DNA from: Bacteroidales bacterium
GTDB taxonomy: Bacteria > Bacteroidota > Bacteroidia > Bacteroidales > UBA3663
Length of the DNA stretch: 64,000 bases
Assembly: GCA_017449065.1 (NCBI GenBank)
Contig: JAFSKF010000049.1
Location: 3,630 to 67,629 of the forward strand
Direction: 5' to 3'
Both the position numbers and the translations under genes were made by a program. Positions 4,026-58,845 of this stretch are shown piece by piece. The notes under the pieces are model-generated. The model was not told the origin of the DNA. It ran no database searches and saw only the letters and a list, made by a program, of their open reading frames with translations. The number at the start of each line of letters is the position of its first letter. Position 1 is the stretch's first letter.

Positions 4026-4026
4026 G

Positions 4027-37223: not shown

Positions 37224-37265
37224 TGGATCATGACGCATATAAACATCAACCCTATTCATTCCATT

Positions 37266-39023
37266 ATGAAAAAATACTTTTCCCTTCTGTTGCTCGGTTT
37301 GACTTTCGTCTTGACTGGCTGCGATGATTTCTTTGAGACCGATCCTGACAATGTGCTCAATGAGAAGGATTACATTGAGAAGGAATCGGATATGTACAAA
37401 GGTTATCTGGGTATTCAGACCCGCGTACAGGAGGTAGGCGATCACGCCATGATTCTCACCGATACGCGTTGCCAGTACCTCGAAACCACCGGTAATGCAC
37501 CGGTTGCTTTGCAGGATATCAATAACTATCAGCCAACTGATGGAAATGTCTATGCCGACCCGACTGGCTATTACGCCGTTATCGTGGCAAGCAACGACTT
37601 TATCCTCAAGATGAATGACTTCTATAAAGAAGTGAACGGAGCCCTTAGCGACTCTGCCAAGGTGCATATTCCCCGCCTTATCTCCGGAGCTATCCGCTAT
37701 AAGGTCTGGGCTTATACGATGCTGGCCCGTATTTACGGAGAGGCTTACTGGTATGATACCAATAATACCGAACTGGTGTCGCTCGACAATGGCGCGACTT
37801 TCCAGCGTCTCGATGTAAAGGGTATCTGCGACAAGTGTATCGACCTGCTCGATAACGGTATCTATGCCTGTGGTCAGCAAGTGCCTGCCGACTTGCGGAT
37901 GGACTGGACGCGTTGGGTCGATCCGATTAACGGAGATGAGAATTACGACTATTGGAAGTATATGTCGCCGGATTGGCTGTCGATGCGTGCGGAATTGGCA
38001 TCGTGGCGCACCAATTATGAGGATAATGCTGCCGCCCTTGCCGATTGGCAGTGGATTAAGGAAAATGTCCTTCAGTTCCTCTATGAGCAGGCTACGCAGG
38101 CTTGGTACCGATATTCATGCAGTATGACTTTACAGCTTTACTACAGTCAGCTTTTCCGTGGCGAAGGGGCTGTGGAGGAGACTATCAATATCGGTTCCGG
38201 TGACGGACACCAGCAGACTCTCTCTGCTATTTTCTACGATTACGACAATCAGCAGCGTAACCGCATCGTTCAGTATCTTTGTCCGGAGTATCCGGGCGAC
38301 GGCTACTATCTGAAACCCTCCGACTATGCGCTTTCACTCTATAATGGTTCCGATCTCCGTAGTGAGACGCAGCGTCTTATGGTGACTCAGTTCAGCGGAG
38401 GTCTGGCTCTTACGAAGTTCTATTACACCCGTTATAACTCGTTGGGCTATCTGCGAACCAAGATTTTCGAGATTGAACCCATGATTTATCTCTATCGTGG
38501 ACATGAGTTGCATTTCCTGTTGGCCGAGGCAGAAAATCATTTAGGTCACTGGGATGTGGCTGCCACTTTGCTGAATCAAGGTGTCATCAACCGTTTCCCG
38601 GGTGGTGTGAACACGCTCGCTACCGATAGCATTGCCGGTTCCCGCATTTGGGATGAGCGCTACACTTCCTTCTTCGCCAGCAATGGCGGCTACGGTGATT
38701 TGGGTATCGCCGGTATGGTGAAGGGTACGGAACATTCGCTCACAGACATCGCCGCAGGTGCTACGGCGGCCGACAGTCTGGCATTCGCTTTCGATGCCGA
38801 TCGCATCAAGGAGTACGATTTGGCATTGGCAGACGAGTTCTTGCTTGAGTTTACCGGCGAAGGCAAATCGTACAGTTACCTCTGCAAGATGGCTGAGCGT
38901 TATGGAAAGGATTATCGGATTGTTTATGACCGCATCAAGGGTAAGTATGCCAATACAGCTTACGATGCTCAGGTTAGGTCCTCTTTGGCAAATAAGTACT
39001 TTGTAGATTGGAGCCTGAAGTGA
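37266..39023 (+). CDS. SusD/RagB-family surface lipoprotein (pair 2)
   Basis: Starts MKKYFSLLLLGLTFVLTGC followed by DDFFETD. Sits downstream of SusC and has a SusD-like C-terminus. The track start 37230 adds 12 non-signal residues. Confidence 0.85.
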   Translation: MKKYFSLLLLGLTFVLTGCDDFFETDPDNVLNEKDYIEKESDMYKGYLGIQTRVQEVGDHAMILTDTRCQYLETTGNAPVALQDINNYQPTDGNVYADPTGYYAVIVASNDFILKMNDFYKEVNGALSDSAKVHIPRLISGAIRYKVWAYTMLARIYGEAYWYDTNNTELVSLDNGATFQRLDVKGICDKCIDLLDNGIYACGQQVPADLRMDWTRWVDPINGDENYDYWKYMSPDWLSMRAELASWRTNYEDNAAALADWQWIKENVLQFLYEQATQAWYRYSCSMTLQLYYSQLFRGEGAVEETINIGSGDGHQQTLSAIFYDYDNQQRNRIVQYLCPEYPGDGYYLKPSDYALSLYNGSDLRSETQRLMVTQFSGGLALTKFYYTRYNSLGYLRTKIFEIEPMIYLYRGHELHFLLAEAENHLGHWDVAATLLNQGVINRFPGGVNTLATDSIAGSRIWDERYTSFFASNGGYGDLGIAGMVKGTEHSLTDIAAGATAADSLAFAFDADRIKEYDLALADEFLLEFTGEGKSYSYLCKMAERYGKDYRIVYDRIKGKYANTAYDAQVRSSLANKYFVDWSLK

Positions 39024-39095: not shown

Positions 39096-41264
39096 ATGAA
39101 GAAGATTTTTACTTTTTCGGTGTTAATGGCTGCATTAGTAGCAGGTCAGGCATTTGCCGACACTACCGTCAGCACGAAGGCTGATTTGGAGAATGCAATT
39201 AAGGCGGCTGCCGGTACGGGTCAGGAAACTGAGACCGTCATCAACATTGCTGCAGGTTCTTACATTTCTTTCTCGAACGGTTTCGAATGGCCTCTTGATT
39301 GTAACATCACTATCAATGGTCTTACCGATGACGAGCATCCGGACAAACCGGTTTTGACCATGCAGACTAAGTGGGCTACACCTAACACAGAGGGTACAGC
39401 TACCAATTTGCATTTCAACAATCTGCAGTTGGAGTGTACTGGCGGCCGTACAGCAAACTCAAAGTATATGTTTACCATTGCAGATAAGCAGGATTTTGAA
39501 GTGTATGTTGGCGATCTTCATTTCATCAATTGTGACTTTACGAATTGGAACCGTGCCATTATGCGTTGTCAGCCCAATGAACGTACGGTTGAGGAGAACG
39601 GCGAAGCCTTTACTGTGAAATGCGGTGGCGAAATTAATTCTTTCAAGTTGGAAGGTTGTAAGTTTTATGACGGATATTCACAGGCGAACCCAATGCCAAT
39701 GTTCTATCTTGGCTTGCGAGTTGTCGAAGCTGACATCGAAAACAATCTTTTCTACAACATGGGATATGTTAACGCTTTCTTTGCTTTTGCCTACATGACT
39801 GATTACTCAGTGGTTGACATCAACTTTACAATGAAGAACAATATGTTCGTTTGCCGTCCATCGGGTACGTTCATGACGTTTAGCAGCTTTGTAGGTCAGA
39901 GCTCTGTTTTCACTGTAGAAAACAACTTCTTCCTGGTTCCGAACTGGCGTGATGAGTACAACAACATGGATATCACCGACTCTATGCTGGTTGCCGTACC
40001 TGATACTCTTTCCCGTTTGCCTCGCAAGACTTTGGCCAATATCCGTTATGGTATGGGAACCTTCTCGAACAACGTGCTTGAGCAGTTCGGCAAGGCTGTC
40101 AACGGACTTGATGCAGATGGTGAAGGCATTTGGTCAGTAGATACCCTCAATTGGTTTACTTTCGAGGATGTTGATTTCTCTTGGGATAAGTTCACTGACG
40201 CACAGGGTGGTCTCTATGGTATTTGGAATGGTGAAAAGGTTTATACTGCCGGTACCAACGGCGAGCCTATCGGTGCTAAGATCCAGTACACCAGCGAGAA
40301 GCAGGAGGTTGTTTCTCTGACTGTTTCTATCGAAGGTTCGGAATCTGCTGAGGTTTCTGTTTCTCCAGCTCAGGCTAAGTATCTCAAGGGTGATGTTGTT
40401 ACTGTTACCGTTGATACCAAGGGTCTCAATGAGGTCGTTTCTTGGAGCAATGGCATGACAGGTCTTTCTAACGAAATCACGCTCGAAGAAGACCTCAACC
40501 TGGTTATCACTTGCAAGGAAACACCTTACTTCGCTATCTGGAACTTCCAGCAGATTACCAAGAACGGTTCTGCAGCTGCTGCCGACCTCGTTCCTAACTT
40601 TGCTAAGGCCGCTTTCAAGGACGTTCAGATCCAGATGGTTCAGTATGTAGATTCTTTGAACGGTTACACCACCGAGGGTCAGGTATTCCAGACTCGTGGC
40701 GAGAAGATGGGCAAGCCTTGTATCATTGTTCGTGACTCTCTCTATAACGTGGCAGCTGCTCACGTAGCTTATCTGCAGATTGTTATTCCTGAGGTTACTG
40801 CCGATATGACCTTCAGCGCAGAAATCGGTACTGAGAACTACATGACCAAGACTACGAACCTCGAAGCCAGCACCGATGGTACCAACTGGACGAAGCTGGC
40901 AAGCATCGATCTCGATACCAAGAATTCTAACACTTGGAATCAGATTTCCGGTAAGCTGGATGCTTTCGCAGGTCAGAAGAACGTCATTGTTCGCATCAAG
41001 GGTGTTGAAGAGTCTGGTTATTGGATTGGTCAGGATGTCATTGATTTGGCAGATGCTGAGGGCGTTGAACCTGAAACCAAGCTGACATTCTACTTCCCAT
41101 ACTTCACCAACTTCCAGCTCATGGGTGCTACCGATACCGCTATTGAGCAGGTTGAGGCTAACAAGGTTGCCGGTAACGCTGTTCGCTACGATATCCTGGG
41201 CCGTAAGATCAACAAGGCTAATGGCCTCCAGATCCTGAATGGCAAGGTGATCTTCGTGAAGTAA
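39096..41264 (+). CDS. T9SS-secreted PUL-associated protein, right-handed beta-helix-like (DUF4957/DUF5123-like from memory)
   Basis: 722 aa with a type-I signal peptide. The N-terminus ...TKADLENAIKAAAGTG...INIAAGSY resembles pectin-PUL beta-helix surface proteins. It ends ...VRYDILGRKINKANGLQILNGKVIFVK (T9SS CTD). Confidence 0.55.
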   Translation: MKKIFTFSVLMAALVAGQAFADTTVSTKADLENAIKAAAGTGQETETVINIAAGSYISFSNGFEWPLDCNITINGLTDDEHPDKPVLTMQTKWATPNTEGTATNLHFNNLQLECTGGRTANSKYMFTIADKQDFEVYVGDLHFINCDFTNWNRAIMRCQPNERTVEENGEAFTVKCGGEINSFKLEGCKFYDGYSQANPMPMFYLGLRVVEADIENNLFYNMGYVNAFFAFAYMTDYSVVDINFTMKNNMFVCRPSGTFMTFSSFVGQSSVFTVENNFFLVPNWRDEYNNMDITDSMLVAVPDTLSRLPRKTLANIRYGMGTFSNNVLEQFGKAVNGLDADGEGIWSVDTLNWFTFEDVDFSWDKFTDAQGGLYGIWNGEKVYTAGTNGEPIGAKIQYTSEKQEVVSLTVSIEGSESAEVSVSPAQAKYLKGDVVTVTVDTKGLNEVVSWSNGMTGLSNEITLEEDLNLVITCKETPYFAIWNFQQITKNGSAAAADLVPNFAKAAFKDVQIQMVQYVDSLNGYTTEGQVFQTRGEKMGKPCIIVRDSLYNVAAAHVAYLQIVIPEVTADMTFSAEIGTENYMTKTTNLEASTDGTNWTKLASIDLDTKNSNTWNQISGKLDAFAGQKNVIVRIKGVEESGYWIGQDVIDLADAEGVEPETKLTFYFPYFTNFQLMGATDTAIEQVEANKVAGNAVRYDILGRKINKANGLQILNGKVIFVK

Positions 41265-42922: not shown

Positions 42923-45097
42923 TTAACGTATATAGATCTTTTTGTTGTTGCGGATATAGAGTTGCCCGCGAACCGGACGGGTGACGGGGCGACCCAGAAT
43001 GTCGTAGAGGGTGTTGTCCGAAGGCTGCTCCGTGGTCTCCACTTCGCGAATGGCGGTTTCCTGTTCACCGTCGATGAGCCAGAACTTCAGCGTAGGCGTA
43101 TTGCCGTTGAAGGTGATGGTGATGTCCTGTCCGGAAACAGCCTTGTCGAACTCGATGTCGAGCGTGGTTCTGACTCCCGACGTGGCGTCGATGACGTAGG
43201 TGCCCGCATCGATCTTCTTGCCGTTCACCTCCGTCACGTTGATGTTGTTGCCCGTATAATTGCTGTAGCCATACACGCGCATCTTGGTGATCGAATAGCC
43301 GGCAGGCACGAAGATGCGGTATTGCTGAGCTTTGAGCTTCAGGCAGTGTTCCTGTCCGCCGGCAATCGAACCCGTGGCGTTCTGGATGGCGAAACCGTCA
43401 GCAAACAGCTGCTGCTTGGCGCCCGAATCGTAGCCCTTGTAGGTCAGCGTCGAAAGTTCGTGCTTCCAGGCAGGGGCGATGTCGCTGCGGACGGTCATCT
43501 CGTTGTAGGTCACGCCCCCTTGCAGTTTTGTGTCGTAGCATGAGTCGGCAATGGCGCGCACCGATTTGTTCAGATAGTTGGCGGCATATTCCGTGTAGCT
43601 GTAACCGACGCCCGCAGCTGGGGAAGAGGCAATCACCTTGCCGGTCTCGCTGCCTTCGATGCCCCACGAATCCTCGAACGAGTCGCGCACATAGTTGTCG
43701 TTCAGGTCGCGGATGGAGGAACTGTATTCCGCATCGTCCTGCACCAGAATAGGCCAGGCGCTGTTCTCCACCTGAGCGGCAGTCAGTCCGTTGCGGAGGT
43801 TGTCCGACTGGGTGTCAATCATACCATAGGAGGCACCGTTCGAACCCGATCCGTTCTTACCGATGCGGCCCGTCACCTGTGCGATGACCAGCGAATCGAC
43901 GCAATCGCGACGGTAGTTGGCCGAGTTATATTCGCAGCTGAAACAGCCGGCGAACTTCAGCACGCGACGGTAGGCCTCCTCAGCGCTCCACGTGGTGGCA
44001 AGCATATATTCGCGAGGCTCGCGCAGACGCATGGTGTCTTTGGTGACCGACGAATAGACCGACGACGAGTAGCCCGAAATCTGGTTGTAGATGCCGTAGG
44101 TCCAGTTGTCTGCAGTCACGTCGCTGTAGTCGGGATTCACGTTGCCGTCCACATAGAAATGGCCCCAGGCATTCACGGCTCCGGCAAAGGCGGGGTAGGT
44201 GCGCACATAGTCAGCGCTTCGGGCTCCGATGGCGCAGATGCGCTTGCGGCGCACCAGGCTGCGCTGGTCGGTGGCTGGTCCGGGCTTATAATAATTGTTC
44301 ACGAAATTGGCATCCGTAGCCTCTGCACCGTAGCAGCCCTCGCCGCCCCAGTTGTAGAACACGCAGTTGCGGATATCCACGAAGTCGAGTGTAGCCAGGT
44401 CGCCGTCACCGCCCAAGCGGGGCACGCGGCTCGAACACTGGGCAATCAGGTTGTGCAGGTAGCTCACATTGCGTCCGCCCCAGTTGCCGCCATAGCCGTG
44501 CGCACCCTTCACGTGTCCGGCATTGGTGAGCGACTGTTCGATGATGCACCACTGGATGGTGATGTTCGAGCCTTCGCTGACCGACAGGCATTCGTCGATG
44601 CTCCAGCTCACCGAACAGTGGTCCAGGATGATATTGTCAGCTTCCTCGATGCCAAAGCCGTCGCCTTCGTGGTGGGCCACCTGCCTGTTGCCCAGGCGGA
44701 AGCGCATGAAGCGGATGATGGCATTCTGGCAGGAGATGGTGACGGGATAGTCAGCCAGACAGATGCCGTCGCCCGGTGCCGTTTGTCCGAGGATGGTCAG
44801 GTCGCCGCAGTCCATGTTTAGGGCAGAAGTCAGATAGATGGTGCCCGACACCTTGAAGATGATGATTTTCTTGCCCGGCTGCTTCACCGCCCAGCGGAAG
44901 GTTCCTTTCACCAGGTTGCTGTCCGAGCAATCGTCCAGGCTGGTAATGGCATATACTTTGCCGCCTCGTCCGCCGGTGGCATACCGGCCGTAGCCTTCTG
45001 CACCGGGGAAGGCCAGCATCTGTTCCTCAGCCAAGAGCGGGACATTCAGCAGCAATTGCAGCATGAGGCAACCGAGAAGTAGAAGTGTTTTTTTCAT
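42923..45097 (-). CDS. PL1 pectate lyase with T9SS C-terminal domain
   Basis: 724 aa; ...AFPGAEGYGRYATGGRGGKVYAITSLDD..., ...IILDHCSVSW..., ...SSRVPRLGG... (PL1). Ends ...TLYDILGRPVTRPVRGQLYIRNNKKIYIR. Confidence 0.9.
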   Translation of the reverse strand: MKKTLLLLGCLMLQLLLNVPLLAEEQMLAFPGAEGYGRYATGGRGGKVYAITSLDDCSDSNLVKGTFRWAVKQPGKKIIIFKVSGTIYLTSALNMDCGDLTILGQTAPGDGICLADYPVTISCQNAIIRFMRFRLGNRQVAHHEGDGFGIEEADNIILDHCSVSWSIDECLSVSEGSNITIQWCIIEQSLTNAGHVKGAHGYGGNWGGRNVSYLHNLIAQCSSRVPRLGGDGDLATLDFVDIRNCVFYNWGGEGCYGAEATDANFVNNYYKPGPATDQRSLVRRKRICAIGARSADYVRTYPAFAGAVNAWGHFYVDGNVNPDYSDVTADNWTYGIYNQISGYSSSVYSSVTKDTMRLREPREYMLATTWSAEEAYRRVLKFAGCFSCEYNSANYRRDCVDSLVIAQVTGRIGKNGSGSNGASYGMIDTQSDNLRNGLTAAQVENSAWPILVQDDAEYSSSIRDLNDNYVRDSFEDSWGIEGSETGKVIASSPAAGVGYSYTEYAANYLNKSVRAIADSCYDTKLQGGVTYNEMTVRSDIAPAWKHELSTLTYKGYDSGAKQQLFADGFAIQNATGSIAGGQEHCLKLKAQQYRIFVPAGYSITKMRVYGYSNYTGNNINVTEVNGKKIDAGTYVIDATSGVRTTLDIEFDKAVSGQDITITFNGNTPTLKFWLIDGEQETAIREVETTEQPSDNTLYDILGRPVTRPVRGQLYIRNNKKIYIR

Positions 45098-49013: not shown

Positions 49014-52000
49014 ATGAAAAGACTTTTACAATCTGCTCTGACTTTTGCTTCCGCAATGGTTCTCAGCGTCGGATCGCTTTTTGCTGATCCCGATTACTCA
49101 CAGTATCCGCAAGTGCCAAGCGACGATTTCTTCCCGCTCCAGTCGGGCAATTACACCAAGTACAGCACCACGGGTCCGAATGTTCCGACCTACGAATCGG
49201 GCAACCAGAACATCGGTTACCTGAAGAACGGCGGTGTTTCCGAATATACTTTCTATTGTACGCGTAAGGCGTATTACAATCTGGCCATCGGTATCAAGAA
49301 CTATTCCGGCGGTACCATCGAGGCTACTGTCGTGAACGAGGATGGCAATACCGAGCTGTCCGGTTCGTTCGAGATTGTTGCCCCGTCGTCCGATTACGGT
49401 GAGGTGCAGTATGAATTCGGAGACGTGCTTTCGACGGGTGTCAAGACCCTGAAGATGGTGTTCAAGGCTGATCACTCCAGCTGGATCATGAACTACAAGA
49501 ACGTCACCCTGAAGAAACGTGCCGACTTCGACGACGGAAGCACCAAGTATAAGGTTTCCTACAGCCAGAACATCGAAGAGGCAGGTTCGGTTTCGCAGTC
49601 TCCGTCGGGCGACGATGCACCGGAAGGTTCGACGGTCAAGTTCACTGCCAAACCGAATTTCGGTTACCATTTCATCAAGTGGACCGATGCCAACGGCACC
49701 GAGCTTTCGACCGAGAATCCTTATTCCGTTACGGTGAATGCTGATGTGGCAGTGGTTGCCGTTTACGAGCAGGTGGCTACCTATCAGCTTTCTCTGAACA
49801 TCGAGAACGGTTACGAGGATATGATTACCATTTCTCCGGCTCCGACCGTGATCGACCAGAAGTATATGTATGAGACCGGCACGGAGGTGGCCTTGACCGC
49901 TTCGGAAAACAAGGTGGTGAAGTTTGCCAGCTGGAGCAACGGTGCTACCAGCAACCAGACCTCGGTTACTATGGATCAGGATGTAACCATCACGGCTACC
50001 TACAGCTTGGGCGATTTCCTGGCTGCCTGGGATTTGCACAATACGGCAAAGTCGCAGCCCTATACCGCTGACTTCTATTCTTCCGAGGATAACGAGAAGG
50101 CAGGCCTCTATCTGCGCAACTTCGATACGAATCAGGTGACCAGCCGCTCTTATTGGGTGCGCGATTCCGGTAATGCCGTTATCTGGGGCGATGATGTGAA
50201 CTATGCTTACGAAATGAACCTGAACACCACGAACTTCACGGGTATCTCGATCGAAATCGATCTTTGGTATTCTTACAACTATTGGGAGAAAGTGCAGGGT
50301 CAGTATTCCATTGATAATGCTGAGACTTGGGTGAACGTAGGCGATCCTGTCACAATGACTTCCGGTTCGACCACCTACACCTGGACTTTGCCGGAGGCTT
50401 GCGAACACCAGGCAAAACTCTTGTTCCGCCTGTTGCCCGATGTCACTTCTCCTGTGCTGAACGAGGGTGCTTCTACGTATCGTCCTCTCTGGATTGACAA
50501 TATTTATGTGTTGGGTCAGGGAGCTATCTTCAACGATGGTGTGGCCCCGGTATTGAAGAGTTTCGTGCCAGCCAATGGTGCTGCCGGTGCTTCTTCCACC
50601 GGCCGTGTGGCTCTCACCTTCGACGAGAAAGTGAAGCTCACCGATGCCGCTAAGGCTACTTTGACTGCTGCTGACGGTAAGGTGACCACCCTCACCGGTG
50701 CTGCTGCCGGCACAATTGTTACCTTTGCCTATACAGGTCTTGATTACAATACCGAGTATGTCTTCACTCTGGTTGCCGGTTCGGTGGCCGATCAGGGAGA
50801 CAATGCATTGCAGGAGGACATCACCATCCGGTTCACCACAATGGTTCGCCCGACCGTTGCCAAGAAGGGCTTCGACTTCGTGGTGGGTGTTGACGGTACG
50901 GTGGATGAAGCTTTTGCTGCTGCCAACAACCAGTCGTCCGACCGCTTCAAGATCTTCGTGCCAAATGGCGAGTATCTGTCGAAGGGTAACTCTGACTATT
51001 CGATGACTTACATCTATAAGACTGTTTCCATCATCGGTCAGGATCGCGACTCCGCATTGATCTATAACACACCTGCCGGTTACGGTATCTCTTCTTGCTC
51101 TACCATCGACTTCCGTCAGGGCGACGACAACTATGTGCAGGATATCACCATCGAGAACCGTCGTGGTGTGGATGGCGGACAGGCTGCCGCTTTGCACGAG
51201 AGCACGGAGCGCAACATCTACAAGCATGCTACCTTCTTGGGCAATCAGGATACCTACGTTTCGAACAATCGCGAATACTTTGAGGATTGCCAGCTGATCG
51301 GTTCTGTCGATTTCATCTGCGGTGGTGGTGACATCTGGTTCGAGCAGTGCGATTTGCAGATCACTCGCAGCGGCTCTGTGCTGACAGCTCCGGCTACAGC
51401 CAGCACACAGCTTTGGGGCTATGTATTCAACAACTGTACCGTAGATGTCTATAAGGGTAAGGTTTATAACCAGGATGGCACATACGGCTACTGCAATGCC
51501 GGCGATGGCAGCTACACGCTGGGTCGTCCTTGGCAGAATTCTCCGGCTTCCACCTTCCTCTACACCAAGATGAACATTCTGGCGGGAAGTGCCGGCTGGC
51601 AAGGTATGTCTTCCGATAAGGTGGTTCGTTTCCACGAATTCGGAACAGTCGATAAGAACGGTACGTTGGTGGACCTCTCTACCCGTTCTATCAGCAGCCT
51701 GAATCCGGCTGAGGGTTCAGACGCTCCTGTGCTGACCGAAGAGAAGGCTTCTGCCTACAACATGGCAACCGTCTTGAACGTCGAGAAGGATGGTTGGATC
51801 CCAACGCTCTACACCGAGCAGTGCGATGCTCCTGCAGTCGAGCTGAACGAGGATGTCCTCACTTGGGCAGACGATGCTTATGCTTCCTGCTACGTTATCT
51901 TCAAGGATAATGTGTATGTGGCTAACGTTACCGAAAACAGCTACAAGCTCTCCGAGGCCGGTAACTACACCGTACGTGCTGCCAACGAGCGTGGTGGCTT

Positions 52001-52166
52001 GGGCGATGCTTCAGCAGTAATCAGCTATTCTGAGCCTACCGCTATCGAGTCTGTCTCTGTGGCTCCTGCCAGCCAGACCGTTTACAACCTGCAGGGTCGC
52101 AAGGTCAGCACCCTCTCGAAGGGTCAGATTTACCTCAGCAACGGCAAGAAGTTCCAGGTGAAGTAA
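49014..52166 (+). CDS. Multidomain CE8 pectin methylesterase with T9SS C-terminal domain
   Basis: 1050 aa. N-terminal CBM-like module, then two InlB-B-repeat-like modules (...EGSTVKFTAKPNFGYHFIKWTD...) and an SbsA-Ig-like module. CE8 motifs FLGNQDT, GSVDFICGGG and YTLGRPW. Ends ...VYNLQGRKVSTLSKGQIYLSNGKKFQVK. Confidence 0.9.
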   Translation: MKRLLQSALTFASAMVLSVGSLFADPDYSQYPQVPSDDFFPLQSGNYTKYSTTGPNVPTYESGNQNIGYLKNGGVSEYTFYCTRKAYYNLAIGIKNYSGGTIEATVVNEDGNTELSGSFEIVAPSSDYGEVQYEFGDVLSTGVKTLKMVFKADHSSWIMNYKNVTLKKRADFDDGSTKYKVSYSQNIEEAGSVSQSPSGDDAPEGSTVKFTAKPNFGYHFIKWTDANGTELSTENPYSVTVNADVAVVAVYEQVATYQLSLNIENGYEDMITISPAPTVIDQKYMYETGTEVALTASENKVVKFASWSNGATSNQTSVTMDQDVTITATYSLGDFLAAWDLHNTAKSQPYTADFYSSEDNEKAGLYLRNFDTNQVTSRSYWVRDSGNAVIWGDDVNYAYEMNLNTTNFTGISIEIDLWYSYNYWEKVQGQYSIDNAETWVNVGDPVTMTSGSTTYTWTLPEACEHQAKLLFRLLPDVTSPVLNEGASTYRPLWIDNIYVLGQGAIFNDGVAPVLKSFVPANGAAGASSTGRVALTFDEKVKLTDAAKATLTAADGKVTTLTGAAAGTIVTFAYTGLDYNTEYVFTLVAGSVADQGDNALQEDITIRFTTMVRPTVAKKGFDFVVGVDGTVDEAFAAANNQSSDRFKIFVPNGEYLSKGNSDYSMTYIYKTVSIIGQDRDSALIYNTPAGYGISSCSTIDFRQGDDNYVQDITIENRRGVDGGQAAALHESTERNIYKHATFLGNQDTYVSNNREYFEDCQLIGSVDFICGGGDIWFEQCDLQITRSGSVLTAPATASTQLWGYVFNNCTVDVYKGKVYNQDGTYGYCNAGDGSYTLGRPWQNSPASTFLYTKMNILAGSAGWQGMSSDKVVRFHEFGTVDKNGTLVDLSTRSISSLNPAEGSDAPVLTEEKASAYNMATVLNVEKDGWIPTLYTEQCDAPAVELNEDVLTWADDAYASCYVIFKDNVYVANVTENSYKLSEAGNYTVRAANERGGLGDASAVISYSEPTAIESVSVAPASQTVYNLQGRKVSTLSKGQIYLSNGKKFQVK

Positions 52167-52189
52167 TCATCTGTTGCCAATAACGAAAA

Positions 52190-52222
52190 AGAGTGGTGGC
52201 CAACCGGTCGCCACTCTTTTTT
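52190..52222 (+). terminator. Rho-independent terminator
   Basis: AGAGTGGTGGCC (52190-52201) pairs with GGTCGCCACTCT (52206-52217) with 2 G-U pairs, loop AACC, then a T-run. Confidence 0.7.
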
Positions 52223-52373
52223 GCTCTTAAACTTTTTTCTGACCAAAAGGCGAAAAGGTTATTCGTCAATAATTCTTGGTTATTTTCCGATTTTGCTTAA
52301 AAATCATCAGTTCGAACTATTGAACGGATGCAAGCGATGAATGATGCTTTAAGGGCAGAATAAAAAAGCCATG

Positions 52374-52685
52374 TTACAGTATTGTCAAAGAAACTCTTTT
52401 CCCTAATCCATTGAAAATTCGGAAGAGAGTTGTCAATTGGATATCAGAACGTCCATTTTCAATTTTGGAGATGTAACTTTTCTTCGTGCCAATTTTTGCT
52501 GCCAGTTGTTCTTGTGTTAGGCCAGCCTGGCGCCTTTGTTCTTTCAAACATTCAGCTAAACAAAATGCTTCTGCCTCTGCTTCAAATGCCTCGCGAGCAA
52601 CTGTCCCGCGTTTGCCATATTCAGCATCAAGTAGGTCGTCAAAACACTCACATTTCATAATAGTGTTTTTCTTTTTTGTTTCCAT
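52374..52685 (-). CDS. XRE-family HTH antitoxin (HigA-like)
   Basis: 103 aa; ...AGLTQEQLAAKIGTKKSYISKIENGRSDIQLTTLFRIFNGLG... Its start overlaps the toxin stop (TAATG). Confidence 0.8.
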   Translation of the reverse strand: METKKKNTIMKCECFDDLLDAEYGKRGTVAREAFEAEAEAFCLAECLKEQRRQAGLTQEQLAAKIGTKKSYISKIENGRSDIQLTTLFRIFNGLGKRVSLTIL

Positions 52686-53032
52686 TACTTTTCCTCCTTG
52701 CTTTTAAAATATTCTTTTTTAATGATTTCTGCTCGCTTGATTTCTTTTTGAGGTGTTTTCTGACTCTTTTTTTGAAATCCATGAAAAAGGACAACTATCG
52801 AACCTTCATCCATACAACAGAATATTCTGTATATATTACTCTCTACTTCGATGCGAATTTCATAGAGACCCTCAGAACTTTCAATACGTTTAAAGAATTT
52901 TATTGGAATTATGCGTTGGGTTTCTACTAGTCTCAACACAAAATTTATTTTCTCGCGTACCGTTGCCGACTGCTCAATATAAAACTCTTTGAAGTAGGAT
53001 TAGAAGAGAATAATTTATCGAATCGTATCCAT
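52685..53032 (-). pseudogene. Gp49-like (RelE/ParE-superfamily, HigB-type) toxin with two in-frame TAA stops near the N-terminus
   Basis: From ATG 53032 the frame reads MDTIR*IILF*SYFKEFYIEQSATVREKINFVLRLVETQRIIPIKFFKRIESSEGLYEIRIEVESNIYRIFCCMDEGSIVVLFHGFQKKSQKTPQKEIKRAEIIKKEYF.... Stops are at 53015-53017 and 53000-53002. The only open remnant starts at GTG 52939 (84 aa). Confidence 0.6.
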
Positions 53033-53159: not shown

Positions 53160-53192
53160 AAAAAGGCACCCCGATTGATCGAGGTGCCTTCA
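53160..53192 (-). terminator. Rho-independent terminator (mirror copy of 58813-58845)
   Basis: The minus strand reads AAGGCACC-TCGATCAATCGG-GGTGCCTT followed by TTT. Confidence 0.75.
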
Positions 53193-53230
53193 ATAGGATA
53201 TGTTGTTCAAATGAGAGGATTAGTTCTCGT
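53160..53230. repeat. Outer inverted repeat, left arm (perfect partner at 58775-58845)
   Basis: 71 nt, exact reverse complement of 58775-58845. Covers the last two codons and stop of the small ORF plus the terminator hairpin. Confidence 0.95.
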
Positions 53231-53381
53231 AATCAGACCATCCACTATCTACTCTGCGGCTGCAAGCCTCGTTGCCGGCTTTCGTACCGCTACCGAATTC
53301 GACAGTAGCAGATGCTGCAATAACCTGTTGTGTTTGAATCTTCACAACGTTGATGTTTGGAATAATATATTTCTTTTTCAT
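53220..53381 (-). CDS. Unannotated 53-aa ORF, paralog of 58631-58783
   Basis: MKKKYIIPNINVVKIQTQQVIAASATVEFGSGTKAGNEACSRRVDSGWSDYEN. AGGAG lies 9 nt upstream of the ATG. It sits 18 nt downstream of the large gene and shares the AAS...SG...R...(G/S)WSDYEN pattern with its partner. Below the ORF-track size cutoff. Confidence 0.55.
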   Translation of the reverse strand: MKKKYIIPNINVVKIQTQQVIAASATVEFGSGTKAGNEACSRRVDSGWSDYEN

Positions 53382-53399
53382 TGTTTTTATCTCCTATTT

Positions 53400-55637
53400 T
53401 TATTTAATGATAACTTTCTTTCCGTTCACGATATACATACCCTTAGTAGGCTGGTTAACGCGCTGACCTGCCAAATTGTAGAAGATGCCATTTTCAGTTG
53501 TGCTGCGGATAGCATCAATACCTGTAACTTCTTCGTCGCTGAAGATTACCTTCAATGCAGAAGCAGAAGGAGCGCTGTCTAAGTGCAGATATGCCTTTCC
53601 AACTGCAACAGATCCGCTGCCAATCTGATAGAACAGACCGTCGCTATACAGGATATAGTCATTCGTAGTGCCGTCGAACTCAGTAGTGCCGTCACCAGCT
53701 TTCAGCAGGTTCGTAGCAGGAGCAGTTGCTGAAGCGGCTACAGGAACGGTGTACTCTGTACCAGCAGTACCAATCAGCAACAATGGAGTTCCAGCAGGAA
53801 CAGCCTCTTCCACTTCGGTTATTGTCACAGCGCTGGCAGAAGCAGCGGTAGCTACGTATGCCTTCAGACCTTCAACACCAGTGAAGTCCAGTGCCTTCGT
53901 GGTGACGTATGTTGTCATGTCCTTAGCAGGAGTGACGGAAACAGCAGCAGAAGCTTTTGAGAGTTTAATGTAGTAAATATGCAGACCCTTGCTCGGAGTA
54001 ACAGTCACATTGCCATCTTTGTTAATAGTCCATTTGCAGACTTGATAAGTCTTGGCAGTAGCATCGCCCTGTATCTGAGTGGCATTGCTCAACGTCACGC
54101 CACGGGCTTCAGAAGCCTTATGTGACTCTACGCCAATCTCGATGATTGAGCCTTTGGTTACAGAAGGAATGGTAATCACCGACTTGTTGCCATACAGCCA
54201 TAAGTATTGACTGCCATGATAGGTTCCAAGACTTGTGCTGGGATAGTTGAACATAATGGCCATAGAGTATGCGCCGCCCGTATAGGTTAAGCCTTCTGTC
54301 TCAGCAATATTGGTGCTAGAATACTGAAGGGCACCGTCAATAGCATTTATATTGGAACGTCCCTGACCGTCACTCCAATCCGTGCCGCCGTCTTTCTCTG
54401 CGTTGAGCCAGTTCGTTGCATCGTCAATCAATCCAGTCTTTGTAGCATCGCTCCATGCAGAAAAGTCCCAAGTGGTATCCTCATAAGTATATGAAGAAGG
54501 AGCATACTCCTCACCATAAATTTCAATGTAAGCGCCCAATTGGTTGCTTCCTGGACGCATTGTGATGGTTGCGCCATAGCCAAGTTCCGACTCGGGAATG
54601 AATTCAATGGTCTTTACATAGGTCTCGTCAACATAGTCGTAGAATGAACCAGAGGCAGGAGTGAAGCCATCAAATGCAATAGTAGAAGCATTGCCTTCAC
54701 TGCCCTTCAACCAAGATTTACCAACAACGACAATCTTTGTTACCTTAATATTGTTACTGATTTTAAGAGTATAATTGTCGGTATGGTTCAGTTTGAAACC
54801 GTCATTTGATCCAGCAAGACTTACTGCGTTTTGACCACGGCCTTCCACATTATCAGTAAGGATATAATTGCCATCTGTGCTTGTCCATACATCTCCCGAC
54901 ACGTTTCCTCCATTATAACCAAGAACTGCTTTAGCAGTTGCGTGCGACACATAGCAGTCTTTGAGCATAAGGCTTGAAGAGTTTTCACCCTTGATTGCAA
55001 TAGCACGTACTGTACATGGATCGGTGATGGTTATTTCAGCACTATAGGTCGTGCTGGAAGAGGTAGGTGTAGAGCCATCGGTAGTGTAGTAGATGGTCGC
55101 TCCATCGGTGCTACATGTTATCGTTACGCTGCTTCCGCTCTGTGTGATGACGGGGTTAGCAACATCGTCAGCTGCTGGACGGGAGATGGTGAAAGAAGTG
55201 AAATTTTTTACACCATCTTTCCAAAGATATACATCCGAATTGCCAATCAGGTCTGATCCGTTAGGCACGGTATATGGGAATGTAACCGATGAGCCTTTTG
55301 TCGAAGTAGCGCTGATGAACATTGTGCCACTGCCAGAAAGGGAAATGATGTCTCCTTCTGCTATGGTTTCTGACGTCAGAGTTGCATGGAAATAGCTAGC
55401 TCCAGAGCCGCCTAAGTTAATCTGACCTTGACCCATATTGCTGACTGCTGAAGATTTGCCATTACAAACTTGTGCAGTACCGCCTACAAACGTAGCAGTA
55501 ACATCTGCGATATCTCCTTGGGCTAAGCTTGTTGTCGGTCCCGTCACTGCGGTCATCGAGTAAATGGTTGTAGCTTCTGCCCACGCACCACTCACTGCGG
55601 TTAGCGCAAGCGTCAATAAAGTAAATAATTTCTTCAT
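53400..55637 (-). CDS. T9SS-secreted cell-surface protein (chitobiase/hexosaminidase-C-like Ig domain; adhesin-like)
   Basis: 745 aa; signal peptide MKKLFTLLTLALTAVSGAWA; ...SVTITCSTDGATIYYTTDGSTPTSSSTTY... module. Ends ...GIFYNLAGQRVNQPTKGMYIVNGKKVIIK. Confidence 0.75.
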   Translation of the reverse strand: MKKLFTLLTLALTAVSGAWAEATTIYSMTAVTGPTTSLAQGDIADVTATFVGGTAQVCNGKSSAVSNMGQGQINLGGSGASYFHATLTSETIAEGDIISLSGSGTMFISATSTKGSSVTFPYTVPNGSDLIGNSDVYLWKDGVKNFTSFTISRPAADDVANPVITQSGSSVTITCSTDGATIYYTTDGSTPTSSSTTYSAEITITDPCTVRAIAIKGENSSSLMLKDCYVSHATAKAVLGYNGGNVSGDVWTSTDGNYILTDNVEGRGQNAVSLAGSNDGFKLNHTDNYTLKISNNIKVTKIVVVGKSWLKGSEGNASTIAFDGFTPASGSFYDYVDETYVKTIEFIPESELGYGATITMRPGSNQLGAYIEIYGEEYAPSSYTYEDTTWDFSAWSDATKTGLIDDATNWLNAEKDGGTDWSDGQGRSNINAIDGALQYSSTNIAETEGLTYTGGAYSMAIMFNYPSTSLGTYHGSQYLWLYGNKSVITIPSVTKGSIIEIGVESHKASEARGVTLSNATQIQGDATAKTYQVCKWTINKDGNVTVTPSKGLHIYYIKLSKASAAVSVTPAKDMTTYVTTKALDFTGVEGLKAYVATAASASAVTITEVEEAVPAGTPLLLIGTAGTEYTVPVAASATAPATNLLKAGDGTTEFDGTTNDYILYSDGLFYQIGSGSVAVGKAYLHLDSAPSASALKVIFSDEEVTGIDAIRSTTENGIFYNLAGQRVNQPTKGMYIVNGKKVIIK

Positions 55638-55724
55638 GTTTTTTGTTTTGTTAAGTTAATATGGTTGTAATTGTTAGTTGATTTCTTCGAAGTGAGAGTC
55701 ACCGAGCGGTGAAATAAAATGACC
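55577..55724. repeat. Inner inverted repeat, left arm (partner 56538-56685)
   Basis: 148 nt (87-nt 5' UTR plus the first 20 codons and 1 nt). Reverse complement of 56538-56685 with one mismatch (at 56548). Confidence 0.95.
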
Positions 55725-55805
55725 TGTTTTTTGCCACAATTGCAACAAAACTGTGAATTTGTAATACAAAAGGAGTATGGGAAATAGTTATTCTCCTACA
55801 GGGTT

Positions 55806-56141
55806 GTAAAATTTCTCTAACTGGGGCGTAAAATTTCCCCAGTAGGGCTGTTTGTTCTGTGCCAATACACCAAAACTCTTGCGGAAACGTTTTCTTGGCA
55901 TCCGGAATAGCCGCTGACGAAATTTTTTTCATTCCATACGTTCCGGAGTTGCTGCCGACTCAGCGGAAACCATTTCTTGCACTCCGGAGTTGCCTCCGAC
56001 TCCGTCAGCACGAGGTCTGGAAGATTTGAAACGCTTCCCCGAGCGTCGGGAACAGCTCCGGAAAATTTGGAATGCTCCCCCGACTCTCAACCAAAATATT
56101 TGCAACCACGAGGAGAAAAATTTTGCTACCACGAGGAGAAA
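55806..56141 (+). repeat. Degenerate short-period (~22-23 bp) repeats in the segment between the divergent genes
   Basis: Exact sub-repeats: GTAAAATTTC at 55806 and 55828; TCCGGAGTTGC at 55942 and 55983 (20-mers differ at 2 nt); ACCACGAGGAGAAA at 56105 and 56128. Recurrent AAAATTT...CCGGAG/CGAGGAG theme. Confidence 0.6.
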
Positions 56142-56461
56142 CGTAAAATTGGGCTCTGCAGCAATGTTAACTCGTTACCTCGAAACGGACAAAGATACCC
56201 GTTTTTACCTAAGGACTCAACTTTAATATATATACTCAACTTTTGCAAGCAATGAAACCCTAAGAGAAACTTGAATGATAATCTCAAGAAAGCACGAAAA
56301 TATTAAATCCTTCAAACCGTGTTCGCTGAAAAACTTTCTGAGTGAAAACTAAACGAGAGTAAAAAAAGCAAAAAATCGGTGTTTTTGCAACTTGAAATTG
56401 CAAAACGTGTTAAATTTTTGTTAAATTATTGGAACTACGTTGCCATTTGGACGCTTTTGGC

Positions 56462-56469
56462 TAACTTTG
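56462..56469 (+). promoter_or_regulatory. Bacteroidota-type -7 promoter box, oriented toward the 647-aa surface-protein gene
   Basis: TAACTTTG, 69 nt outside the right inner inverted repeat and about 155 nt upstream of ATG 56625. Confidence 0.5.
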
Positions 56470-56537
56470 CGCCAAATTTATGCATGACATACGAAAATCC
56501 CTTTGTGAGCAGTTTCTGCACCATGATGAATTTTAAC

Positions 56538-56685
56538 GGTCATTTTAATTCACCGCTCGGTGACTCTCACTTCGAAGAAATCAACTAACAATTACAACCA
56601 TATTAACTTAACAAAACAAAAAACATGAAGAAATTATTTACTTTATTGACGCTTGCGCTAACCGCAGTGAGTGGTGCGTGGGCAG
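56538..56685. repeat. Inner inverted repeat, right arm
   Basis: See 55577-55724. Confidence 0.95.
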
Positions 56686-58568
56686 GCGATCTCTACAAGA
56701 TTTCGTTTAATGGCAGTGATGCAGAATCCAAGAATGGCGAAACTCATTCTTCCTACTTTTCAAATTCCGGCAAGCACAATTTTAACACAAAGTTCAATGG
56801 TTGTACATATGACGGTGTAACCTATACACAGGGTTTGAAAATGGAAGGAACTACAAATGTTTCTTGGACATCGACTGCTACTTCGACCGTTACGATTGTA
56901 CAATCAACTTATGGATCCAAAACTGTTAAATTAGATGGTGAGGACCTTGCGCTTGAAGAAGCAGAGGCTATTACGGGTGGGTACGTTCACACTATTTCTG
57001 ATGTAGCAGCAGGAAGCCATTCTATAACACGTGGCAGTGGTGAAACCGGCCTTTTTGCAATAATCGTAGAGTATACGGGCGCTGTTATGACCCAGCTCAC
57101 TGCTCCAGAAATCACAGTCAATGCCGCAAGCGGCGAGGTGACTATTGGTGCTGTTGCAAATGCCAGCAAGGTGACCTACACCACCGACGGCAGCGAGCCC
57201 ACAGATGAGAGTACAGAATATACTGCCGCATTCACAGTTGAAGACGGTGTTACCATAAAGGCCGTTGCTATTGGTGATGGTGTATCGTACACCAACTCTA
57301 CCATCGCTTCTAAGGTGGCATACATTGACGGTATCACAGTAGCTGAACCGGTAATCAATCAGTACAACGGCACTGTTGCCCTTACCACTTCTACTCCCGG
57401 AGCAACGATTGAATACAGCCTTGACAATGTGACATTTAACACTTATTCTCGTGCGTTCACACTGAGCGAGGATGTAACGTTATATGCCCGTGCTTCCCGT
57501 GCAAACTGCACCACTTCAAGCGTTGCCTCTGCTGCTGTTACAACCATCAGCAAGGGTCTCGCCAACAAGACCATTTGGATGGGTCACGGCTCGTTCGACA
57601 ACAACACCACGAACTCTATGACCGGCAAGTCTGGCGACGATGCCGAGGGTATTGTGCTGACTATTTCTGGCAATAGCAGCAAGAATTGGTCTTCTGGCAA
57701 TGGAAAGATTGCGATTGGCGACATCGAGAGAACTTCCATAAAACTGTCTAATGGTGCTCAGAACACAATTACGCTACCCACAGGCATGAAAGCCACCCGC
57801 ATCACCTTCTACAGTTTCATCAATGCCGCCACCAGTAGCACTGTTTCTTACTGGAAGGAGTTCCAAGGCGATGCTATTAGCGGTGCCAATGTTCCTATGG
57901 GAGCATGGAATGATGTTGACGGATATCTGACGACACCTGACGTGCGCTCATTTGCCCTCAATGGCGACGAGACCACCATCACCTTTACCAATGCTGGCGA
58001 GCAGCTCTGCTTCATCATTGCACTTGACGTAATCGAAGACCCTGTTGTTTCCATCTCTGCCGCAGGTTACGCTACTCTCTATTCTGAGTCTGCTCTGAGC
58101 ATTCCTTCGGGCGTTACTGCTTACACTGGCAAGGTAAGCGGAAGCAGTTTGGTTCTTACCGCAATTGAAGGCGGCATTATTCCAGCTAACACAGCTGTTG
58201 TTCTGGAAGGTGAGGAAGGATCTTACACATTCAATGTAACTACCGGCGGTACAGCTGGCGATAACGACCTCGTGGGTGGTACTGGCGAAACTGCAACTGA
58301 CGGCGACCTCGTTCTCGGTGTTGCTGAAGGTGTTGTAGGCTTCTACAGTTATACTGGCACCTTGGCTGCCAACAAGGCTTATATCCCAGCAGATAAGGTT
58401 GCTTCTGCATCCGGTCTCCGTCTCGTATTCGAGGAGGAAGGCGAGGTTACAGGCATCGCAACCCTCCGTGCTGAGGAGAATGCAACCAGCGTATTCGACC
58501 TTACAGGTCGTCGCACTAACACCAAGGGCTTGGTTATCAAGAATGGCAAGGTTGTTCTCGTGAAGTAA
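56625..58568 (+). CDS. T9SS-secreted cell-surface protein, paralog of 53400-55637
   Basis: 647 aa with an identical signal peptide, MKKLFTLLTLALTAVSGAWA. Two ...TYTTDGSEPT... / ...GATIEYSLDN... Ig-like modules. Ends ...SVFDLTGRRTNTKGLVIKNGKVVLVK. Confidence 0.75.
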   Translation: MKKLFTLLTLALTAVSGAWAGDLYKISFNGSDAESKNGETHSSYFSNSGKHNFNTKFNGCTYDGVTYTQGLKMEGTTNVSWTSTATSTVTIVQSTYGSKTVKLDGEDLALEEAEAITGGYVHTISDVAAGSHSITRGSGETGLFAIIVEYTGAVMTQLTAPEITVNAASGEVTIGAVANASKVTYTTDGSEPTDESTEYTAAFTVEDGVTIKAVAIGDGVSYTNSTIASKVAYIDGITVAEPVINQYNGTVALTTSTPGATIEYSLDNVTFNTYSRAFTLSEDVTLYARASRANCTTSSVASAAVTTISKGLANKTIWMGHGSFDNNTTNSMTGKSGDDAEGIVLTISGNSSKNWSSGNGKIAIGDIERTSIKLSNGAQNTITLPTGMKATRITFYSFINAATSSTVSYWKEFQGDAISGANVPMGAWNDVDGYLTTPDVRSFALNGDETTITFTNAGEQLCFIIALDVIEDPVVSISAAGYATLYSESALSIPSGVTAYTGKVSGSSLVLTAIEGGIIPANTAVVLEGEEGSYTFNVTTGGTAGDNDLVGGTGETATDGDLVLGVAEGVVGFYSYTGTLAANKAYIPADKVASASGLRLVFEEEGEVTGIATLRAEENATSVFDLTGRRTNTKGLVIKNGKVVLVK

Positions 58569-58574
58569 TTAACA

Positions 58575-58598
58575 CTCCTTTCCCTTCGGGGAGAGGAG
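58575..58598 (+). other. 10-bp stem-loop with a TTCG tetraloop between the large gene and the small ORF
   Basis: CTCCTTTCCC-TTCG-GGGAGAGGAG (one G-U pair). No T-run follows, and there is no counterpart in the left copy. Confidence 0.6.
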
Positions 58599-58630
58599 AT
58601 ATCCAAAAAACCATAAAAAAGATTACAGAT

Positions 58631-58783
58631 ATGAAATCATATATCAAACCTGAAACTCAGATTGTGGAGATTGAGAACAACGCCATCATGGCTGCCTCTC
58701 TCCCTGTAAACAGCGGTAAGACCACCGATACCCAGCTCGTAGGACGCGAGCGCGGCGGCTCTTGGTCAGATTATGAGAACTAA
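58631..58783 (+). CDS. Unannotated 50-aa ORF, paralog of 53220-53381
   Basis: MKSYIKPETQIVEIENNAIMAASLPVNSGKTTDTQLVGRERGGSWSDYEN. Same position relative to the surface-protein gene and terminator as its partner. Confidence 0.55.
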   Translation: MKSYIKPETQIVEIENNAIMAASLPVNSGKTTDTQLVGRERGGSWSDYEN

Positions 58784-58845
58784 TCCTCTCATTTGAACAA
58801 CATATCCTATTGAAGGCACCTCGATCAATCGGGGTGCCTTTTTGT
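58775..58845. repeat. Outer inverted repeat, right arm
   Basis: Exact reverse complement of 53160-53230. Confidence 0.95.
58813..58845 (+). terminator. Rho-independent terminator
   Basis: AAGGCACC / GGTGCCTT stem followed by TTTTT. Confidence 0.75.

Follow-up and report, generated by a model that had tools for sequence, protein, structure and literature searches.

A candidate two-slot locus for secreted carbohydrate-binding-type proteins, with gene ends homogenised by recombination, in a Prevotella-like Bacteroidales bacterium

The stretch of Bacteroidales DNA analysed here (64,000 nucleotides (nt) of contig JAFSKF010000049.1, hereafter the window) contains two large genes for predicted secreted proteins which lie head to head on either side of an 813-bp non-coding spacer. 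Each of them is followed by a small open reading frame (ORF). We consider it probable that this is a two-slot locus for carbohydrate-binding-type proteins. In this reading, recombination within the genome homogenises the ends of the genes, and these ends mark where gene bodies are swapped between strains. Each half is built in the order 5' block, variable body, family-conserved C-terminal domain with tail, protein of 50-53 amino acids (aa), and 3' block. Since the end blocks bound gene bodies that differ between strains, each strain has a different protein pair. The comparisons demonstrate, at the level of sequence, that homologous exchange between the two copies keeps the 5' blocks of a genome identical, and does the same for its 3' blocks, and that the variation stems from imported or shuffled segments and not from point mutation under positive selection.

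Architecture of the locus

All positions refer to the whole 64-kb window, and arms are paired as reverse complements. Self-comparison by blastn revealed two inverted-repeat pairs nested around 55725-56537 (Table 1). The inner arms (55577-55724 and 56538-56685) are identical in 147 of their 148 nt, the lone mismatch being at 55714/56548. They comprise the 87 nt 5' of the ATG, 60 nt encoding the 20-codon signal peptide MKKLFTLLTLALTAVSGAWA, and a single additional nt. This confirms the coordinates and the content (87-nt leader plus signal peptide) that the original prediction had given for them. A 72-nt core of the inner arm occurs exactly twice in the window and not once in 100 shuffles. The outer arms (53160-53240 and 58763-58843) match at 79 of 81 nt, and the two mismatches are both synonymous (Tyr TAC/TAT and Ser TCT/TCA). 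Their perfect part consists of the last two codons of the small ORF, the stop codon, and 60 nt of 3' untranslated region (UTR) with the terminator hairpin. A perfect outer repeat had been predicted and is real, but its length is 69 nt (53160-53228 and 58775-58843) and not 71 nt; the right arm had been placed at 58775-58845, shifted by 2 nt, and literal pairing of that placement gives 51 mismatches.

Outside the end blocks, blastn found no DNA similarity between the halves above noise. The description of the locus as a 5.7-kb duplication does not hold at the DNA level, where the halves are two paralogous modules with common ends. Divergence of the interiors had been predicted correctly: the large proteins are alike only at the signal peptide, in the CHB_HEX_C_1 domain, and over the last 161 aa (38% identity), and the small ORFs are 37% identical, both ending in WSDYEN. 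Each half forms a two-gene module in which the small ORF follows the large gene after 18 nt (left) or 62 nt (right). Neither a further copy of the arms nor a transposase was found in the 64-kb window.

The layout is real and not an artefact of assembly, because independent assemblies reproduce it. Scaffold L013, from another sample, covers left gene, arm, spacer, arm, and right gene at 99.9% identity, and a 63-kb scaffold of another strain (L001/L009) contains the complete layout. In run X1, the collapsed unitig of the inner arm has a depth of 29.3, compared to 13-17 for its flanks. The arm is thus about twice as deep as its surroundings, which indicates two arm copies. With these scaffolds and the doubled depth, the assembly artefact that the original prediction had named as a refutation is excluded.

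Table 1 Features of the locus (positions in the 64-kb window)
Feature	Position	Strand	Description
Outer arm, left (3' constant block)	53160-53240		last 7 codons of the small ORF (WSDYEN and stop), 3' UTR, terminator
Small ORF, left, 53 aa	53220-53381	-	member of a family of 45-60 aa proteins
Left large gene, 745 aa	53400-55637	-	signal peptide, beta-sandwich domains, C-terminal domain and tail
Inner arm, left (5' constant block)	55577-55724		87 nt leader and signal-peptide codons
Non-coding spacer, 813 bp	55725-56537		single-copy, between the inner arms
Tandem 23-nt repeat AAAATATTTGCAACCACGAGGAG, 2.1 copies	56093-56141	+	inside the spacer
Imperfect palindrome TAACTTTG-CGC-CAAATTTA	56462-56480		two TAnnTTTG boxes, identified by motif
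Inner arm, right (5' constant block)	56538-56685		homology to the right genes of other strains stops at its outer end, 56685
Right large gene, 647 aa	56625-58568	+	CBM77, two CHB_HEX_C-type domains, C-terminal domain and tail
Small ORF, right, 50 aa	58631-58783	+	same family as the left small ORF
Outer arm, right (3' constant block)	58763-58843		includes terminator hairpin 58812-58841

Exchange between the arms

In the window, both inner arms have T in place of A and one additional A, and these changes are absent from both arms of L001/L003. As strain-specific changes occur in both arms of one genome, the arms exchange sequence. In L013, the inner arms are identical over 148/148 nt. The 3' common tract measures 81 nt in the window, 86 nt in L001, and ~800 nt in runs X4/X7, and the tract boundaries are abrupt. 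Both marks of concerted evolution were therefore found, namely derived changes common to the two copies and abrupt tracts which vary in length. Gene conversion or recombination between the arms, as the original prediction had proposed, is borne out by the common changes, by the identical arms of L013, and by the ~800-nt tract.

The leader is not conserved in the distant relatives L116 and L107-110, and the signal peptide is ~87% conserved as DNA. Because the leaders of distant relatives differ, the identity of the leaders within one genome reflects recent homogenisation and not constraint. The 3' UTR of the outer arms is, like the leader, unrelated in more distant relatives. Gene conversion would be the mode of exchange, whether accompanied by crossover or not.

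In L001, the left arm lacks 13 nt at its inner end (7180-7193 region), and the right arm lacks 14 nt in the signal-peptide codons (8186/8187), a loss that would shift the frame. These deletions are either repeat assembly errors or real lesions. L010 and L003, which belong to the same strain type, have neither of them.

Replacement of gene bodies between strains

Between common end blocks, the gene bodies differ among three strain types of one species, in agreement with the variable surface-protein locus that had been proposed. Cross-strain comparison for mosaic alleles, a check suggested together with that proposal, gave a mosaic left gene and a right gene that is wholly replaced in L001/L003. 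The right gene of the window is unrelated to that strain type from exactly 56685 to 58402, where a Big_2-type gene is found instead, and the flanks are 97-99% identical. Compared to L001, the left gene is 62-80% identical in patches and 90-100% elsewhere. Along the left gene, the values of synonymous divergence (dS) are 0.07, 0.61, saturated, 0.29, 1.6, and 0.19, and the ratio of nonsynonymous to synonymous divergence (dN/dS) is 0.05-0.3 throughout. Patchy dS together with low dN/dS indicates imported segments and not positive selection on point mutations.

The third strain type was recognised in public runs X4/X7. Contigs of 1760 and 2015 nt join the signal peptide to ~1.6 and 1.9 kb of unrelated sequence, respectively, and rejoin at 58046/58047. 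In the same runs, 58081-58843 is present at double depth and continues into two different flanks after 58843. From these contigs and depths it follows that this strain type has two further cassettes and a 3' common block of ~800 nt.

Recombination of gene parts is also visible among homologs. Three of these (P0027, P0031, and P0032) combine a CBM77-type N-terminus like that of the right gene with a body that is 57-62% identical to the left gene, so domain shuffling between the two cassette types occurs in nature. The tandem modules of L108 have a 300-nt block in common at 92%. Within the proposed two-slot locus, the end blocks would serve as anchors by which homologous recombination swaps gene bodies. 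Substrate range, or pressure from phages or the host, might drive the diversity.

At 54258, a 1-nt deletion (GG to G) in L013 and L014 splits the left gene into 486 + 259 aa. Its presence in two independent assemblies indicates that a disrupted left-gene allele circulates. Contigs of run X2 break exactly at this position.

Spacer and promoter motifs

Per 100 nt, the spacer is 98-100% identical between strains. Neither a convincing ORF nor an Rfam match was found in it, and RNA folding is not significant (fold z-scores of -0.96 and -1.15 for the leader/spacer RNA elements). A candidate RNA element was rejected, as the sole Rfam match (E = 0.58, far under the gathering score) is located at 52163-52267, outside the feature. 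A contig break in the spacer of L010/L003 was likewise rejected as a rearrangement; a 143-nt stretch is identical there between co-occurring strains.

For promoters, a sigma-70-type scan gave chance level and is inappropriate for the phylum; the Bacteroidetes-type -7 box TAnnTTTG was therefore used instead. In the window, 15 of the 34 occurrences of this box fall in the 7% of the DNA that is intergenic, and sense boxes are mostly located 42-290 nt 5' of the first operon gene. The right gene has a consensus box on the plus strand, 163 nt 5' of the ATG, in the palindrome at 56462-56480. The sense boxes nearest to the left gene are 560 and 843 nt from its ATG, the latter being the minus-strand box of the same palindrome. 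A match to 5 of the 6 box positions, CAGTTTTG, is found on the minus strand at 55753-55746, just outside the left arm. In the two-slot locus as we propose it, both genes would be transcribed from this common 813-bp spacer without a programmed switch.

The palindrome TAACTTTGCGCCAAATTTA contains two opposite-strand -7 boxes with interleaved predicted starts and is 100% conserved between strains. Judged from its motifs, it could serve as a bidirectional promoter whose two directions exclude each other, or as a site to which a regulator binds.

In runs X4, X5, X6, and X7, the depth of a 44-nt piece (56099-56142) with the 23-nt tandem repeat TTTGC(A/T)ACCACGAGGAG exceeds that of its flanks 3- to 30-fold. 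The piece has many different loose ends there and is not over-represented in runs with the strain of the window. The over-depth indicates that it also occurs in numerous other settings in those communities. Among ~1.6 Mb of fetched Bacteroidales loci, no copy turned up.

Alternative explanations

The spacer could also act as a switch, although we regard this as doubtful. In such a switch, one effective promoter near the right end of the spacer would be turned around when recombination between the arms (RecA-type or site-specific) inverts the 813-bp spacer; a cell would then make only one of the two proteins, left or right, with the leader being identical in both cases, and the window would represent the state with the right gene on. 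The arms have the form expected for phase variation, as they constitute a (near-)perfect inverted repeat (148 nt, 99% identity, 813 nt apart) around a short stretch with a promoter, and they demonstrably recombine. They contain leader and signal peptide without a promoter, as in Mycoplasma vpma/vsa and Ureaplasma mba/UU172 (PMC5634654, PMC3047005). The sole proximal consensus promoter faces the right gene and would, after inversion, be 163 nt from the left ATG too. The frameshifted left allele at 54258, seen in two other samples, fits a copy that is often silent. Two points weigh against our preferred reading here: the left gene appears to have no consensus promoter at the usual distance, which fits a single-promoter switch better than two constitutive promoters, and consensus assemblies give the majority orientation only, with which a minority flipped form is compatible. 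Against inversion speaks that all arm-spanning assemblies (window, L001/L009, L010, L011, L013, and L003; two strain types) have a single orientation; switching, as the alternative antigens of the original prediction would imply, was not seen. No recombinase gene is present in the 64-kb window, where neither the ORFs of >=200 aa nor the small ORFs at the locus contain an integrase/invertase domain. Moreover, two minus-strand consensus boxes and the 5-of-6 box could serve the left gene, which is under purifying selection. A contig of run X2, in which the left end of the spacer is connected to the right gene, looks inverted but was rejected as proof: it is a k=31 unitig with a 137-nt exact repeat at ~4x depth, and it is equally likely under either orientation. 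It is uninformative because both alternative junctions are uncovered and the unitig is expected in either case; in general, the public-run contigs (Logan, k=31) are unable to phase the inner-arm repeat. A loose end in run X10 was simply the left arm aligned to the right arm. We are equally hesitant about the more extensive version, a recombinase-independent toggle combined with slots into which any cassette of the species pool can be installed, so that each cell displays one of two glycan-binding proteins.

Very unlikely, by comparison, is an old inverted duplication without ongoing exchange, in which purifying selection on leader, signal peptide, and terminator keeps the blocks. Across the family, the signal peptide (MKKLFTLLTL...) and the end WSDYE are indeed conserved as protein, but selection on peptides leaves the 100% identity of the 87 nt leader and the 60 nt 3' UTR unexplained. 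This explanation is also disfavoured by the strain-specific changes in both arms and by the length of the common tract, which is 81 nt in one strain and ~800 nt in another. Hardly any credence can be given to an assembly artefact or to a mobile element with 148-bp terminal inverted repeats between two unrelated genes. Short-read assemblers often break or misjoin at such repeats, and the 13- and 14-nt arm deletions of L001 are maybe errors of this kind; yet independent assemblies from different samples and assemblers agree, and the arm depth is doubled. For a mobile element, a transposase and another copy in the window are missing, and we rejected this reading of the arms since they are the native 5' ends of family genes which start with this signal peptide elsewhere.

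Large, predicted secreted proteins

Left protein: The protein of 745 aa has a Sec-type signal peptide, several beta-sandwich domains, one CHB_HEX_C_1/Fn3_assoc domain, and the tail ...GMYIVNGKKVIIK. Its AlphaFold (AF2) model, based on a 31-sequence alignment, is all-beta and multi-domain, with a predicted local distance difference test (pLDDT) value of 85. Foldseek against the PDB matched the model to carbohydrate-binding accessory domains of glycosidases (carbohydrate-binding module (CBM)-type) and to the surface glycan-binding protein (SGBP) SGBP-B of B. thetaiotaomicron (7kwb). The likeness to 7kwb is confined to the beta-sandwich domains.

Right protein: The protein of 647 aa has the signal peptide of the left protein, a CBM77 module, two CHB_HEX_C-type domains, and the tail ...GLVIKNGKVVLVK.

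Export: The signal peptide ends with ...AVSGAWA, followed by E or G. It has no lipobox Cys, so the proteins do not qualify as lipoproteins of the SGBP kind. Without a lipobox, another route of anchoring or export is needed, and the type IX secretion system (T9SS) is a possibility. The T9SS label of the original prediction failed in both tests to which it was put. Profiles of T9SS sorting domains (Pfam Por_Secre_tail and NCBIfam T9SS type A), with which the C-terminal 91-144 aa were searched at E up to 10, matched neither of the large proteins nor the neighbouring pectinesterase. A model of the C-terminal 176 aa (pLDDT 87) had no match among solved structures, the best PDB hit having E = 1.8. 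The last ~25 aa (FYNLAGQRV...GMYIVNGKKVIIK) are, we presume, like the final strands of T9SS sorting domains.

Pectinesterase tail: The pectinesterase (49014-52166, 1050 aa; Pectinesterase, Big_5, and InlB B-repeat domains) has the tail ...GQIYLSNGKKFQVK, which is of the kind found in both large proteins. The tail common to the three proteins may be an export or anchoring signal that current T9SS profiles miss.

Homologs: The large proteins belong to a big, modular family with 612 matches, many of them over part of the query only. NCBI names the homologs only as [quoted passage not shown] Exact-protein look-ups gave no match for either large protein, and matches for the small ORFs and DUF4857. 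From domains and surroundings, we infer that the large proteins are probably exported, exposed proteins of glycan-binding or adhesin type, one of them with a pectin-type CBM77, beside a region for pectin and xylan utilisation.

Small-protein family

The locus exposes a widespread family of ~50-aa proteins. A profile built from 5 sequences found at least 258 clusters (representatives at 50% identity), nearly all of 45-60 aa and with end-to-end matches. Their consensus is MKKYIxPxxEVxxxETxxxIAxS...RxRGSxWSDYEx, and no model of the family exists in Pfam or NCBIfam. At all related loci that were examined (including L097-L116), the small ORF is located directly 3' of a gene of the large secreted family. 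The idea that large gene and small ORF form a paired unit was thus upheld.

The N-terminal YxxPxxxV motif recalls leaders of lasso peptides and other ribosomally synthesised and post-translationally modified peptides (RiPPs), which is a resemblance only. One of 40 family members weakly matched a paeninodin-type precursor model (E = 0.004), and no gene for a cyclase, a protease, or a RiPP recognition element (RRE) was found at any locus examined. With one weak profile match and no maturase genes at the loci, we do not class the small ORF as a lasso-peptide or RiPP precursor.

Comparison with known systems

Campylobacter fetus sap: Dworkin and Blaser are said to have described, in 1996-97, a single sapA promoter on an invertible segment between opposed S-layer cassettes, with RecA-dependent, nested inversions. 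This system resembles the present locus in its head-to-head surface-protein genes, whose conserved 5' regions form long inverted repeats around a promoter segment, in the nesting of repeat pairs, and in that no dedicated recombinase is needed. It reportedly differs in that inversion was demonstrated, in the size of the arms (~600 bp) and of the segment (~6 kb), compared to 148 bp and 813 bp here, and in that the sap genes encode S-layer proteins with type I secretion and no small partner ORF.

tufA/tufB: In Salmonella, these inverted paralogs undergo concerted evolution by gene conversion. As in the present locus, identity within a genome exceeds that between strains, derived changes are common to both copies, and tract boundaries are abrupt. 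There, however, the whole gene is homogenised, whereas here only the ends are, and the interiors are diverse.

Mycoplasma vpma/vsa/vsp and Ureaplasma mba/UU172: In these loci, inversion at conserved 5' blocks alternates neighbouring genes and can form chimeras (PMC5634654, PMC3047005). A highly conserved 5' leader with signal peptide and variable bodies are found in both cases. Their sites, however, are short and specific, a Xer-type recombinase is encoded nearby, and the products are lipoproteins, whereas our locus has no recombinase in 64 kb and no lipobox.

Bacteroides invertons: Invertible promoters and the SusC/SusD or hsdS shufflons (Mpi/Tsr; PMC8748976, PMC10939037, PMC10028968) occur in the same phylum. 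Like the arms described here, their inverted repeats lie on both sides of promoter regions or of the 5' ends of genes, and they control surface structures. Unlike them, they are short (tens of bp) with recombinase core motifs, whereas the 148-bp arms consist of leader and coding sequence and look like substrates of homologous recombination.

SGBPs: With SGBP-B (7kwb) of a Bacteroides polysaccharide utilisation locus (PUL), the locus has in common a string of beta-sandwiches with a carbohydrate-binding module and the position beside polysaccharide utilisation genes. SGBPs are lipoproteins inside the PUL, whereas the present proteins have a signal of the signal-peptidase-I type (...SGAWA, no Cys) and a distinct C-terminal domain with tail.

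Overall, the locus differs from known systems in that its homologous arms are long, no recombinase is encoded locally, no inversion was seen, and a small partner protein is present.

Prevotella-like bacteria of the rumen and gut are dominant fibre degraders. To our knowledge, almost nothing is known of how their exposed proteins vary. The locus is a testable example, with two expression slots, fixed ends, and strain-specific, recombination-shuffled carbohydrate-binding bodies next to pectin/xylan genes. It could account for strain-level differences in substrate attachment or phage sensitivity, and it marks sequences which break short-read assemblies. If flipping were true, a switch of the homologous-recombination type would join the site-specific invertons known in Bacteroidota. 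If the toggle were true, the combination of phase variation and cassette exchange, with an uncharacterised small-protein partner family, would be undescribed in Bacteroidota.

Organism, relatives, and neighbourhood

The host is an uncultured Prevotella-like Bacteroidales of ruminant guts. Runs with the locus are gut and goat-gut metagenomes, and NCBI labels the homologs of the large proteins as proteins of Prevotella sp. metagenome-assembled genomes (MAGs). The nearest genome is a Bacteroidales MAG from yak abomasum, with DUF4857 at 77% aa identity. The exact leader is absent from GTDB species representatives (searched with a 27-mer) and from JGI metagenomes (22-mer).

Related species have a single module beside IS66 or two tandem modules at another chromosomal site. 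A head-to-head arrangement in which the leaders are identical is peculiar to the lineage of the window. At the tandem site, the first gene varies between genomes (564, 420, 691, or 699 aa), and genes of defence or toxin-antitoxin type are sometimes found between the modules, such as the AbiEii/DUF6922 pair in L113. Loci of the family appear to attract accessory and defence-type genes.

In the window, the left neighbours of the locus are the pectinesterase gene and a HigB-like (Gp49)/HTH_3 pair (52374-52939), and a DUF4857-ABC-DUF6850 operon follows on the right. In L001, the HigB-like/HTH_3 pair is replaced by an AAA_14/DUF4143 ATPase gene (3527-4663). The large ORFs 32162-34069, 37230-39023, 39096-41264, and 42923-45097 have no Pfam match. 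The region 9967-48832 is dense in genes for polysaccharide utilisation (xylan, pectin). It contains two GH10 genes, a GH43 with CBM6, a GH31, a GH28, a hybrid two-component regulator, and two SusC/SusD-like pairs with fasciclin/DUF5108 proteins.

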